A stretch of DNA of 63,249 nt, the filler included, from Octopus bimaculoides (lineage: Eukaryota): NCBI RefSeq assembly GCF_001194135.2. It is 6 parts of 6 records of this genome, joined end to end, with 100 filler letters (N's around TTAATTAATTAA, not from the genome) between each part and the next. Parts side by side here need not be neighbours in the genome. Positions count along the whole stretch, not along the records: positions 19,902 to 50,834 come from NC_068981.1; positions 50,935 to 58,309 come from NC_068983.1; positions 58,410 to 61,945 come from NC_068993.1; positions 62,046 to 63,249 come from NW_026302746.1; 2 more parts are not named here. One strand, given 5' to 3'. Of this stretch, positions 21,633 to 63,249 are shown one piece after another. The number at the start of each line of letters is the position of its first letter. The stretch's first letter is position 1. The notes beneath the pieces were generated by a model. The model had not been told where the DNA came from. It did not search any database and saw only the letters and a list, made by a program, of their open reading frames with translations. A program made the position numbers and the translations under genes.

Positions 21633-21737
21633 TATCTATCTATCTATCTATCTATCTATCTATCTATCTATCTATCTATCTATCTATCTATCTATCTATC
21701 TATCTATCTATCTATCTATCTATCTATCTATCTATCT
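21633..21737. repeat. (TATC)n microsatellite
   Basis: Perfect array directly abutting the Tx1 fragment. Confidence 0.95.
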
Positions 21738-22075
21738 GTGTTCATTGCATCCGTCATCTACTACCGTCTGATCGGCGTGCTTTGTCCCGACCCTACCATC
21801 ACAAAACTGGAGCGCATACTCTTCCGCTTTTTGTGGAAGGGAGGCGTTCTGATGCTCAGGCGATCCATCTGCTGCCAACGTTCGCTAAATGGAGGACTGG
21901 GCATGCCGTGGTTGATGATGCGCAGATATGCACTGAGACTGCGACATCTCCAGCGTTTCATAGACGACAGTGAACATGTGTGCTCGCCGTTTGTGTGACG
22001 CACTTTTCCACAGCTCGTCTCTTTGACCGAACTGCAATCGTGGATAAAACAGAGACCGATTACAGCCATATAATG
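21738..22075 (+). mobile_element. Tx1/L1-clade LINE ORF2 fragment (post-RT region)
   Basis: KLERILFRFLWKGG...RRSICCQRSLNGGLGMP motif typical of L1/Tx1 ORF2. Confidence 0.8.
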
Positions 22076-22539
22076 ATTACAGCCATATAAATCACAATTT
22101 TGGAGTTCGATATGGAACGAAGTGTGGAGTACACGTTGATTAATAAACTTTGTTGACTGAGTATCATCTGATTTGTGTCATCTCCACACTAGCCTTGTAC
22201 ACGCTTAATGCTAAGTCAATACATGCACCAAAATCTTTTGGATCATTCCACACACACATACACACACACTCTCTCTCTCTCACATCAACTTCTACACACA
22301 ACATACACACGTTACACATGCATACACACGTCAGACTCACTCACCTCCATCCACATATACACACTTACGCACTCACACATACCATTCTCACATGCACACA
22401 CACACGCTTGCGCACCTCCTCTTGTTGGGATTACCATGGATTTTCTCCCCTTCATTCAACCTCTCATTATCATTATTTCCCTTTCATTCAACCTCTGTTT
22501 TTCCAATCAATCACCATGTTGGACCACTGAACTCAACAC

Positions 22540-22700
22540 GTTTTTTTTTTACATTCTCTATTTATTTCCTCTTATTCCTTTCTGCCGAAGAGCGTAAGCT
22601 CGAAACATAAATAGTTTTCCATTTTTCCCGAGCGTCAAACTAGTACACTTGCTTGTTGTTCCCACACCTGTCTTCGTCTTTGTTTTTCTATAAATTTGAA
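22540..22700 (+). mobile_element. Penelope-like terminal repeat remnant ending in (TA)n
   Basis: ctgccgaagagcgtaagctcgaaac hammerhead-like hairpin, T-rich tail, then (TA)n. Confidence 0.55.
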
Positions 22701-22744
22701 CTATATATATATATATATATATATATATAGGGTATTGAACCCTT

Positions 22745-23010
22745 ACATAGAGTGTTGCACTCACTGTCGGAAGATCGTAGTTTCGATTCTCAGAGCGCCG
22801 ATGTGTTCTGTTCTTGAGCAAAACACTTCAGTCCACGTTGTCTTAGTCCACTCGTCTATAAATGGACAACTCTGCGATAGACTGCCATCCTGTGCAGAAA
22901 GAAGGGAATGTTTCCTGCCCAGCTGGCCGGTGTGACGGCACCATTCCCAAAATACAAAAATTCGAGGGAGCGCCTTGCGACTAGTGGTGACCACGTCCGA
23001 TAGTCTAGCT
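22745..23010 (+). mobile_element. tRNA-derived SINE family E
   Basis: gtttcgattc B-box, then tgttcttgagcaaaacactt core; related pieces at 21555-21630, 25050-25145, 26950-27165 (-) and 29280-29357 (+). Confidence 0.6.
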
Positions 23011-23675
23011 AGACACACACACATATACACAGACGTATACACACACACACACCAATTTGTATATAAACACAAATATTACACACACACACACAACACACGC
23101 ACACTCACACACACATACACACACGTGCACAGACACACGCACACTCTCTCAGACACACACATACACATACAGACGTATGTATATATACACAAATATTACA
23201 CACATACATACACGCATATATATTTCGCTTAGGCATTGCGATACTAAAAACCTGATGTAGAACTCAATATACGTGTGTCTCTAAACCAAGTGTTAGTCAA
23301 GTATAGAGCGGTAATAAGAGAGATAACAAAGAAATAAAAGATTATCTTATGATTTTCAATAGCTTACAGCTGTTTCCACTATAAGGTGCAGTGGATGCTA
23401 CACTCACACACACATACACACACACTCTTACATAAATGTATCTATCTATCTATCTATCTATCTATCTATCTGTCTGTCTGTCTGTCTGTCTATATACTCT
23501 CACATTATATATATATATATATATATATATATATATATATATATGTGTGTGTGTGTGTGTGTGTGTGTGTGTGAGCACGCGCATGTGCGTTTGTGTACAT
23601 TTGAGTAAGTTGCAAATCTAACGGAAGTAACGTTATTTGTACATATGCTAACAAAGAGAGAAGCTAATGAGATAC

Positions 23676-23762
23676 CTGCTAAAAAAAGCAACGATAATCT
23701 TGCAATTGTTGCCACTTCAGGATGATATCCATTCGGTAATTTTCCTTTTATCCACAAATAAG
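23676..23762 (-). CDS. Candidate internal exon (A)YLWIKGKLPNGYHPEVATIARLSLLFLA(G) of an unidentified, possibly membrane, protein
   Basis: Long polypyrimidine tract + GACAG acceptor; CAG|GTATCT donor; 87 nt, phase 1-1, open; unique non-repetitive sequence. Confidence 0.45.
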
Positions 23763-61080: not shown

Positions 61081-61086
61081 GCATTT

Positions 61087-61616
61087 AGTACCAGGCAGTG
61101 GCTTTCATGGCTTTTGATCTTAATTGATTAGAAATATTATCACGTACATTGTTTTGTCTTGGTATAAAAGATGGGCTACAGCAAATATTCTGCTCAATAC
61201 CACAGATTTGCTTGTCAGTTGCTTGACCTAACCCGTTGAGCATGTCTTTTAGTAACTGACTGTATATGCATCTCTGATCACGAGCAGCAGTGGAGTAGCA
61301 TCATAGCCATGTGTTGAGACAAATTCTTTGGGGTTTAAATAATTCATCTCTGGAGGTGTGAATGTTTTGTTCATCATCCTTAAAACAAGCAATATTCAGC
61401 AGGATGGGCTACTCGACCTGAAGAAAATTCTAACTGGGTCCCACCTGCAACGTCATGCGCCGTTTATCTTGGTATGAGTTCACCATGTCCCGCATATATA
61501 GTTGTGATGCATGTGCCTGGTGTACCCTTATCAGACGGACAGTCCTGATGTGTATATTGGGCTTCATACATTTGTAACTCAATGTCACTTAGATGGCAGG
61601 CGCTGCTCTCTCACTC
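61087..61616 (+). mobile_element. About 535-bp non-autonomous retroposon, copy 3
   Basis: agtaccaggcagtggc...ctgctctctcactc followed by (AAT)n 61617-61800. Confidence 0.85.
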
Positions 61617-61800
61617 AGTAATAATAAAATGATAATAATAATAATAATAATAATAATAATAATAATAATAATAATAATAATAATAATAATAATAATAATG
61701 ATGATGATGATGATAATAATAATAATAATAATAATAATAATAATAATAATAATAATAATAATAATAATAGTAATAATAATAATAATAATAATAATAATAA

Positions 61801-61945
61801 GACCTGGAAATAGAGGTAACTCGAATGTGGAATCTAAAAACAGAAACAATTCCTATCATAGTAGGTGCCTTAGGTATAATAAAAAAAATACTCAGACAAA
61901 TACATAACAAAAACACCAGGACTTACAAATATATATAACATACTG
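61801..61945 (+). mobile_element. R4/Dong REL endonuclease C-terminal fragment
   Basis: DLEIEVTRMWNLKTETIPIIVGALGIIKKY; starts exactly at the end of (AAT)n. Confidence 0.8.
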
Positions 61946-62045
61946 NNNNNNNNNNNNNNNNNNNNNNNNNNNNNNNNNNNNNNNNNNNNTTAATTAATTA
62001 ANNNNNNNNNNNNNNNNNNNNNNNNNNNNNNNNNNNNNNNNNNNN
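61946..62045. other. Artificial assembly spacer
   Basis: TTAATTAATTAA at 61990-62001 in N run. Confidence 0.95.
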
Positions 62046-62547
62046 TACATATATATATCCTAACATTTTCTTTACTTAGACACTTTTCTAACTCCCTCTT
62101 TTTCTTTTCGTTCCCACCCTCTCTCTTTCTCTCCCTCTTTCCCTTCTCTCCTTTTTCTCTCTGTCTCTCTCTCTCGTTTCTTCCTGTGTTCCTCGAGGTA
62201 TATATTATATTCGTACATACACACAAACTATCACAAACACCTTGATAACATTTATACCCGGCACCTAAGTCGAAAACGGTGCAGTTGATACCACTTTTTC
62301 CCTACATCCGTTTCATAGTTGTGATTATTTGCATCCTCTGCAAATAATGTAACTGAATAATGGTGCAGAGATGAAAATAGCTGGTTGCAAATGCAGCTTC
62401 ATATTCTGTATGCAGCAGAAACACGTGTCAGTTGTATAAATCCATTATGACGCAAAAATTAAAAATAAAATGAAAAAATTCTAAACATATGAAACCGTAC
62501 CAATCTCTATATTTTTTGAAATTGTTATATATATATATATATATATA

Positions 62548-62903
62548 GATATGCAGGGCAGGGAATCGTCAATTAGTAATAAAATTAATAATTAACAATT
62601 TTGCCGGGTAGCTCAGTATGAAAAATACCGTTATTAACGTGAGTTATTTAGACATTAACAAATTTATTAGAATATTTAGCTGAAGATCAGAATAGAGTAT
62701 TCTTTACTCTTAACTGTGAAACGATCGTACTAAATTAACTAAAGGCAAGTGGTTTTTTTACTCTTCTCTACTGTTTTTTGTTCTGTGTATCAAAAATATC
62801 GCTATCAATTTAGAGTAATAATTTGTAGTTTTGGAATCAGTAGTTCTTTGGCTGCTATTTCTGAATTCTCAGTATGTTGGAGAAGCAGGTTACTGTCAAT
62901 CCC
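62548..62903 (+). mobile_element. About 356-bp non-coding Penelope-type/retrozyme-like element flanked by TA repeats
   Basis: (TA)n at 62525-62547, TA-rich tract from 62904; internal hammerhead. Confidence 0.55.
62674..62735 (+). ncRNA. Type I hammerhead ribozyme with palindromic stem III
   Basis: Stem I AUUUAG/CUAAAU, CUGAAGA 62680-62686, bipartite stem II, GAAA 62718-62721, ACGAUCGU, GUA site with A17 at 62729. Confidence 0.8.
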
Positions 62904-63249
62904 TATATATTTATGATTATATATGTATATATATATATATATATCGATCATATAATGTTAAACTGCTGTATGTCCAAATTTGGCCAAATGCGGTTGTTTG
63001 TTTTTTTTCAATATTTATTTTTAGTTGCAATAGCCGGTTCTCTTGGTCAAACTATCGTATCACCAGCTGCTTCAGATGCCAAGATATCAAAATTTGTCTA
63101 AGTGTAGTACAACGGTTCTGCTATGGAATGGTGAAACTATTTTGTTGTTTTCTTAAAAAGCAACGTTTTGTACTTACGACACTTTTGCATAATTGCAACT
63201 ATATATATATATATATATATATATAATATTATATTATATTTATCTTATG

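Follow-up and report, generated by a model that had tools for sequence, protein, structure and literature searches.

Several non-LTR retrotransposon families of Octopus bimaculoides probably each occupy one simple repeat

The window examined here is a stretch of 63,249 nucleotides from the genome of Octopus bimaculoides, filler included, made up of six stretches joined end to end. It contains retrotransposons that lack long terminal repeats (non-LTR) next to simple repeats: R4/Dong elements of families A, B and C at (TAA)n, a divergent R4/Dong family at (CATA)n (the CATA family), Tx1-type elements at (TATC)n, and S535, a non-autonomous passenger, at (TAA)n (Table 1). We consider it very likely that several such families each occupy one simple repeat, strand-specifically at both ends of the element, probably through their own protein nicking the array and priming there. 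The finding touches four of the six stretches, on C1, C3, C13 and C7889 of the 2.34-Gb assembly, so the side-by-side order of the elements in the window carries no meaning. A preliminary description had presented these adjacencies as the pattern of one window; all of them are present in the sequence, but they do not constitute a single locus.

A motif at the 3' end of a retrotransposon could be its tail, whereas scattered 5' truncation points cannot be explained in this way; 5' junctions are therefore the decisive measure. For each family, up to 30 other genomic copies were collected by DNA search, using queries without the flanking array (except that the last three bases were retained for Tx1). 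These searches give the 40 best-scoring of 21 to 5,850 candidates, and position-ordered samples from exact-pattern lists were added to offset the best-score sampling; the S535 sample was drawn from the top of its list, 22 places in 20 stretches with one CATA copy skipped. Junctions were called against references, which are long single copies. Only copies with an intact 3' end were kept for the junction table, and a 5' junction was scored only if the copy begins inside the reference or, for S535 and an RTE-type element, at the shared start. Junctions falling into assembly gaps were set aside (4 in family A, 24 in family B, 11 in the CATA family and 31 in Tx1). The requirement of an intact 3' end removed 24 ATC junctions of family A, which were produced by a foreign insertion in the reference L295. 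The background consists of 60 fixed-grid 10-kb stretches with 518 kb of called bases, and motif rates were obtained from 28,932 random positions.

TAA is present at 12 of 27 resolvable 5' junctions of family A and at 13 of 21 of family B, CATA at 27 of 65 of the CATA family, and TATC at 6 of 17 of Tx1. The corresponding rates at random positions are 0.13% for TAA, 0.33% for CATA and 0.08% for TATC. The enrichment is at least 100-fold and specific for strand and family: none of 58 motif-bearing 5' junctions carries another family's motif, and none carries the opposite-strand motif. TA and CA, the commonest repeats, are nearly absent from the 5' junctions of Dong, the CATA family and Tx1, and the outer ends of control SINEs, or short interspersed nuclear elements, mostly lack a motif. 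Family-specific enrichment at 5' junctions, on which the preliminary description had staked its proposal, is present. The partition by family is genuine for TAA and CATA, and it is likely for TATC. The proposed community of repeat-dwelling elements holds for the Dong families, S535, the CATA family and, less firmly, Tx1; it was overstated for the RTE-type and Penelope-type elements.

As the preliminary description had noted, all Dong pieces in the window adjoin (TAA)n. Elsewhere in the genome, 3' ends lie in TAA in 20 of 33 copies of family A and in 45 of 46 copies of family B. Family C has (TAA)n at its 5' junction in the window, and of its 8 loci a single one gave a clear 3' end; two further Dong-type families, seen in flanks, also sit in (TAA)n. 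Translations of L294, L301, L300, L055 and L530 contain a reverse transcriptase (RT) followed by a CCHC knuckle and a restriction-like endonuclease motif, as is typical of R4/Dong elements; the endonuclease motif was identified by eye, and Pfam gave no match on this piece. Inside the family C copy of the window there is a perfect minisatellite of 21 bp x3 (59202-59268), and another family C copy is split by a fold-back insertion of TTAGGG-like repeats (L534:560-1000).

Both Tx1 pieces in the window adjoin (TATC)n, again as first described; the 5' association is the weakest of the families. Genome-wide, 583 TATC-pattern matches were found for 749 Tx1 3' ends. Among 20 position-ordered young 3' ends (L487-L506), 14 reach an assembly gap within ~350 bp, showing that the family is badly under-assembled. 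The elements have two frames, with Exo_endo_phos and zf-RVT matches on L374, an RVT_1 match on L304, and an upstream frame resembling open reading frame 1 in L378. We treat them as putative Tx1 elements, following the label in the preliminary description and the typical Tx1 architecture.

The second R4-like family, originally placed in (TATG)n, is flanked by (CATA)n on both sides when read on its own strand. TAA occurs at none of its 65 5' junctions, so it does not share the (TAA)n target of Dong in the narrow sense. The genome contains 2,328 terminal segments of this family; a somewhat shortened pattern that continues into ACATAC gives 1,250 matches. In long copies (L371) an RT is encoded together with a CCHC knuckle and a motif of the restriction-like endonuclease type, and L362 gave an RVT_1 match. 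Sequence identity to the TAA families is 22-41% over short thumb and endonuclease pieces, and that to unnamed database proteins is 43-60%. A profile of 11 relatives aligns with the Dong-type protein P0030 over 1,071 columns (E 6e-124). The N-terminal helix motif of full-length relatives also aligns confidently to P0030; Pfam gave no Myb match to it, and no genomic copy examined reaches the 5' end. The best solved-structure matches of the relative P0001 are R2 proteins. The 3' untranslated region (UTR) of the Octopus family features a CATA tract ahead of a 106-nt terminal segment. At least three CATA units are present at this tract in 16 of 17 position-ordered copies, and some of the tracts form the 5' flank of short copies. 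Six relatives that were checked have no tract of their own target in the 3' UTR; a motif shared with the terminal segment was seen by eye.

Metagenome contigs were scanned for distant relatives, and 14 long loci among the 34 obtained were inspected. Two elements have (CATA)n at both ends (L436, L438). In seven, (CTTA)n adjoins one end or both; (AAAT)n or (TAA)n was seen in three, and the remaining two lack an array. The motifs CATA and CTTA differ by one base. In a midpoint-rooted tree of 24 rows (three short rows omitted, relatives unnamed), elements flanked by CATA or CTTA fall together on one side of a branch whose Shimodaira-Hasegawa-like approximate likelihood ratio test (SH-aLRT) value is 100, and the CATA-flanked elements of the Octopus genome and of the contigs group at 90. 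The four target labels need 3 changes on this tree, the lowest number possible, and none of 200 shuffles was as low, with the proviso that kin share labels and that the contigs come from metagenome assemblies. One element, L444, has AAAT at its 5' end and TAA at its 3' end; together with L446 it belongs to Dong-type metagenome elements flanked by (AAAT)n, which may represent a further target shift. In the literature searched, with Repbase and Dfam outside the search, neither (CATA)n nor (CTTA)n is given as a target of R4/Dong elements, nor (TATC)n as one of Tx1.

S535 had been described as a 535-bp element abutting (TAA)n. All three copies in the window do adjoin (TAA)n, and the element is 556 bp long. 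Genome-wide, 2,223 of 3,789 S535 3' ends run into TAA; at the 5' end, TAA is present in 19 of 29 top copies and in 10 of 20 position-ordered copies. In sequencing runs recorded under other organisms, 4 of 4 have (TAA)n at the loose 5' ends of S535. A pattern search of the genome also revealed S535 3' ends followed by CATA, with 41 matches at 33 sites. We examined 23 of these sites, and the 5' flank is CATA in 15 of 21 resolvable cases and TAA in none. The pooled table of 3' against 5' flanks contains 19 TAA/TAA copies, 15 CATA/CATA copies and no crossed copy (Fisher p 5e-10). One S535 sequence thus has matching flanks in either repeat, which indicates that both flanks were supplied by the insertion site. 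The CATA-type copies are oriented like the CATA family and differ in 3' register, being shorter by three bases with CA as their last two; this ending suggests pairing with the target. One of them lies within a CATA-family tail (L398), and two run into the CATA-family terminal segment (L384, L406). About 1% of the passenger copies would likely have been carried by the CATA-family protein.

Alternatively, the CATA-flanked copies might not be products of the CATA-family protein acting directly, but of TAA-family proteins miscutting (CATA)n or of a template switch from CATA-family RNA. The rarity of these copies (33 sites against 3,789 ends) is in keeping with such an origin, as is the direct entry of L384 and L406 into the terminal segment, which would be expected of a template switch at the internal tract. 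However, no copy of family A or B has CATA at a junction, and both the separate 3' register of the CATA-flanked copies and their orientation speak against this explanation, which we regard as plausible but short of probable. Searches of the S535 head found no tRNA and no Rfam match of the tRNA, 5S, 7SL or snRNA type, so a SINE head is not recognised. In L077, S535 is fused directly to the 3' UTR of family B, and short duplications of the S535 5' end were seen among L077, L064, L079 and L085; both features suggest template jumps. A 212-bp SINE-like family (54135-54346 and many other loci) has (TAA)n at the 3' end in 30 of 130 and at the 5' end in 5 of 129 copies. Some of its copies have clean 11-16 bp target duplications, and this family may use more than one carrier.

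The CATA family and its passenger raise a broader proposition, for and against which we find the case about evenly balanced: that an undescribed, widespread branch of R4/Dong shifted from (TAA)n to (CATA)n/(CTTA)n, that its Octopus member seeds its own target via the 3'-UTR tract, and that S535 is delivered to TAA or CATA by two different proteins.

The preliminary description had further proposed a feedback, in which the elements regenerate their repeats and thereby contribute to the microsatellite load of the genome. Regeneration of the target has some support from the internal CATA tract, from passengers in CATA tails and from tandem stacks: family C follows A, and B follows S535, in the window; S535 is followed by A in L294; and L096 contains two CATA copies. 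A large contribution to the load outside (TAA)n was not borne out. In the background sample, a known family touches 17 of 43 TAA arrays of at least 24 bp, 2 of 33 CATA arrays, 1 of 15 TATC arrays, 11 of 106 TA arrays (2 of these Penelope) and 6 of 92 CA arrays, and several of the 17 TAA-array neighbours are SINEs, not long interspersed nuclear elements (LINEs). Given that the reference library is incomplete and that old copies decay, these shares are lower bounds. The feedback on the load is likely minor outside (TAA)n. That these families are a main source of the microsatellites could be argued from the share of (TAA)n arrays in contact with a known family, from an additional SINE with internal (TAA)n, and from the internal tract brought by each long CATA-family copy. 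We think this improbable, as so few of the other arrays touch a known family, and as TA and CA are the largest array classes. An element with a tRNA-like head (by eye) and internal (TAA)n between two conserved halves accounts for ~5 of the 43 TAA arrays (L151-L210) and would seed Dong targets. A common two-part repeat with internal (CA)n/(TA)n is present at 13741-14150, 14263-14820, 35305-35700 and 39284-39510; with ~50 copies of each half in 518 kb, it is a possible source of CA and TA arrays.

How could one repeat come to lie on both sides of an element? Elements of the R2 group and of Tx1 insert by nicking the target and priming from the nick, and our scheme is drawn from this established knowledge. 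The protein of each family would nick its repeat within an existing array, the freed end would prime reverse transcription, and early termination would join the complementary DNA to the upstream part of the same array. The target would be chosen by the protein, through an N-terminal Myb-like domain and the restriction-like endonuclease in R4/Dong and through the apurinic/apyrimidinic endonuclease (APE) in Tx1, and a short stretch of pairing between the end of the RNA and the nicked repeat would help. Because insertions keep the repeat on both sides, and the CATA family brings an internal CATA tract, later insertions can stack.

Several observations weigh against this reading. Resolvable 5' junctions without the motif are frequent (14 of 27 in family A, 6 of 21 in family B, 34 of 65 in the CATA family and 8 of 17 in Tx1); many of them belong to old or deleted copies, though this was not demonstrated copy by copy. 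For Tx1, 5' TATC was found in 6 of 8 copies of the young set, in 3 of 16 of the older mid-element set and in 1 of 6 resolvable position-ordered copies. The metagenome element L439 falls among the CTTA-flanked elements, yet its 5' end, which is truncated, adjoins (TAA)n. The S535 tail gave no blastn match to the references of families A, B, C and CATA, other Dong families being outside the library. A search for target duplications is uninformative inside perfect repeats, and clean duplications of 11-16 bp were seen only in the control SINE. Finally, contigs of other runs were compared with two insertions: the flanks of L265 are repeats and the orthologous flank contigs of L066, from two other organisms, stop at the array, and no empty site could be read.

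Could the elements instead enter sites without a repeat and generate the arrays on either side on their own, by a slippage tail at the 3' end, a duplicated tail unit at the 5' end and later expansion? Many copies have a 3' array without a 5' array (12 of 27 in family A and 12 of S535), some have short arrays of near-equal length on both sides (19/19 in L012), and the CATA family carries an internal tract, all of which would fit. This account is hard to reconcile with a single passenger sequence that is flanked on both sides either by TAA or by CATA and never by a crossed pair, with copies that combine a long 5' array with almost no 3' tail (L021, L024; 3' ends of 5-9 nt are seen), or with unrelated families stacked in one array, and we judge it very unlikely. 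Chance adjacency, or breakage of the assembly at repeats, is extremely unlikely: perfect repeats of at least 12 bp make up ~5% of called bases, gaps account for 13.7% of sampled bases and many junctions lie in gaps, but the strength and the strand and family specificity of the enrichment largely refute it, with TA and CA nearly absent and control SINEs mostly motif-free. Insertion into existing arrays by each family's own protein thus remains our preferred explanation.

The Penelope-type elements had been assigned to (TA)n. The three ends in the window do adjoin (TA)n, but an exclusive niche is not supported, as the genomic copies show a moderate bias only. In the three families, 3' ends lie in (TA)n in 11 of 37, 6 of 19 and 3 of 14 copies, and 5' ends adjoin (TA)4 in 2 of 25, 8 of 28 and 4 of 13 copies, compared with 1.3% in the background. 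Under a 20-bp criterion the 5' counts were 1 of 31, 0 of 20 and 0 of 15; the later count used better references and the shorter (TA)4. We regard the lean of these families to (TA)n as weakly confirmed, and as a bias, not a niche. A hammerhead with core, GAAAC and cleavage triplet is predicted in 18 of 20 PLE3, 16 of 30 PLE2 and 14 of 30 PLE1 copies, and 10 of 30 PLE1 copies have an altered core base (CUGUCGA). An Rfam scan of the window found no hammerhead, only repeat-driven microRNA matches below threshold, and two strict motif scans missed the three window hammerheads, which were read by eye and with a looser pattern in family copies. The frames of L379 resemble an RT thumb (E 8e-6) and GIY-YIG (E 0.003); these are weak matches for PLE1, with no Pfam or PDB match.

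The RTE-type fragment in the window does have (TATG)n at its 5' end, as had been described. This is not a preference of the family, which favours (TA)n: TA-rich runs are present at the 5' ends of 5 of 5 full-length copies by eye (3 of 6 by the automatic caller), and 3' ends lie in (TA)n in 5 of 6. On these ends, (TATG)n was rejected as a family-specific pairing. The family has an Exo_endo_phos match on L217 and a shared extent of 3,862 bp, as expected for an APE and RT element of ~3.9 kb; we presume that it belongs to the RTE clade. A comparison with ~2 Mb of genome sequence was also made for ten other segments of the window that adjoin (TA)n or (TATC)n, and nine had no match.

The window contains several other elements. 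A Mutator-type transposase remnant (20161-21500; Pfam MULE, E 6e-6) lies beside a 108-bp inverted repeat. A frame with STPR repeats (29357-29989; Pfam E 8e-8) is accompanied by a 69-bp tandem repeat; we take this frame to be typical of a Helitron N-terminus. The segment 56381-56990 resembles a mariner transposase remnant by eye and was used as a control. Further perfect minisatellites are located at 11364-11472 (27 bp x4) and 16568-16632 (13 bp x5).

Table 1. Retrotransposon copies and adjoining repeat arrays in the window
Feature	Position	Strand	Remarks
(TATC)26 array at Tx1 5' truncation junction	21633-21737	+	Read in sequence
Tx1-type LINE fragment, truncated at 5' and 3' ends	21738-22059	+	85% to long copies L374/L378 (APE, RT, zf-RVT)
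PLE1, Penelope-like 3' end	22321-22699	+	82% to L379; predicted degenerate minimal hammerhead near 22578-22613; then (TA)14 at 22702-22729
(TAA)29 array at S535 3' end	30615-30701	-	Read in sequence
S535, 556-bp non-autonomous element, full length	30702-31247	-	92% to copy L070; 3,789 exact 3'-end matches in genome
Older second S535, head-to-tail with first	31263-31870	-	Internal assembly gap; 5' flank is compound (TAA)(GAA)(GAT) array
PLE2, hammerhead-bearing Penelope-type end	36561-37300	-	(TA)n on 3' side; sequence and family copies
(CATA)35 array, 3' side of CATA-family copy	41262-41402	-	Read in sequence
CATA-family R4/Dong copy, 5'-truncated	41414-42436	-	82% to L371; stops at internal CATA tract, without 106-nt terminal segment
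(CATA)19 array at 5' truncation junction of CATA-family copy	42438-42515	-	Read in sequence
RTE-type LINE fragment, APE to start of RT	44533-45806	-	88% to L363; (TATG)n 45810-45865 at 5' end
Young Tx1 copy, 3' part	57636-58309	-	Then (TATC)n at 57578-57634
Dong copy, family C, 5'-truncated	58501-59938	-	Interrupted by SINE ~58646-58836; 5' junction is (TAA)23 array 59940-60008
Dong copy 3' end, family A	60009-60149	-	91% to L294; (TAA)n tail is 5' flank of family C copy
Third S535	61087-61616	+	3' end enters (TAA)61 at 61619-61800; 5' end inside SINE
Young Dong copy, family B, 5'-truncated	61801-61945	+	97-98% to L300/L301; starts directly after (TAA)61
PLE3, young Penelope-type end	62553-62903	+	Predicted type I hammerhead ~62675-62735; inverted 5' piece; (TA)n both sides; sequence and family copies

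The published record contains much of the principle. Microsatellite targets have been reported for Waldo (ACAY), Mino (AC), Kibi (TC), Koshi (TTC) and Dong (TAA), the last including DongBg from a snail (PMC3812793). In most insects, molluscs and cnidarians the target of Dong is (TAA)n, and its N-terminus is Myb-like (PMC7998251). Crocodilian Tx1 elements target (TTCC)n/(TTTC)n and, like Kibi at (TC)n and Koshi at (TTC)n, are treated together with SINEU/Tx1-Mar pairs in PMC4494074. The safe-harbour idea and the microsatellite targets of HERO and Togen are found in PMC4640811, the (TA)n bias of endonuclease-bearing (EN+) Penelope-like elements in PMC8557442, and minimal hammerheads in Penelope-like elements in PMC4209133. 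Waldo, Mino and DongAg occur together in Anopheles gambiae (PMC3812793), so partitioning as such is already known. Dong-R4 has been annotated as abundant in Octopus (PMC13282606, PMC8967140, PMC9115989); the sections of PMC13282606 used here count these elements without discussing their targets. Repeat targeting and the Dong/(TAA)n pairing are thus known already; the tetranucleotide branch of R4/Dong and the passenger with two targets are additions to them.

How restriction-like retrotransposon proteins select their targets matters for RNA-templated gene insertion. If the tetranucleotide branch is real, it provides a natural series for how such proteins read repeats, and full-length relatives with TAA, CATA and CTTA flanks form a series graded by target, suited to assays of cleavage and to the exchange of domains. 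A passenger found in two repeats separates the contribution of the RNA from that of the protein. For cephalopod genomics, the result means that the label Dong-R4 covers no fewer than two classes of target, and that the prevailing TA and CA load is likely not due to these families.

How do the Octopus elements compare with known systems? The Octopus Penelope-type ends share with EN+ Penelope-like elements (PMC4209133, PMC8557442) a predicted minimal type I hammerhead whose stem III is palindromic and which has an additional base after A9, as well as inverted 5' pieces and the lean to TA; they differ in the changed core base of PLE1 and in the moderate, not strict, extent of the (TA) bias. S535 resembles SINEU, paired with Tx1-Mar (PMC4494074), in being a non-autonomous element that shares the target of its presumed mover LINE; it differs in having two targets, no recognised head and no tail in common with the R4 families examined. 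The Octopus Tx1 elements, like Kibi, Koshi and crocodilian Tx1 (PMC4494074), have two frames with APE and RT and sit in a pyrimidine-rich microsatellite; their target, (TATC)n, is different, and we place them beside these elements by architecture and target. Families A, B and C are like Dong, DongAg, DongBg and ostracod Dong1/2 (PMC3812793, PMC7998251) in having one frame with RT, CCHC and restriction-like endonuclease and (TAA)n on both sides, whereas the CATA family is on a separate, fully supported branch with (CATA)n/(CTTA)n flanks. In its tetranucleotide target the CATA family is most like Waldo at (ACAY)n, which includes ACAT, and is comparable to Mino at (AC)n, both of the R1 clade (PMC3812793). 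Waldo uses an APE and the CATA family a restriction-like endonuclease, so the same repeat has been reached by an unrelated enzyme.

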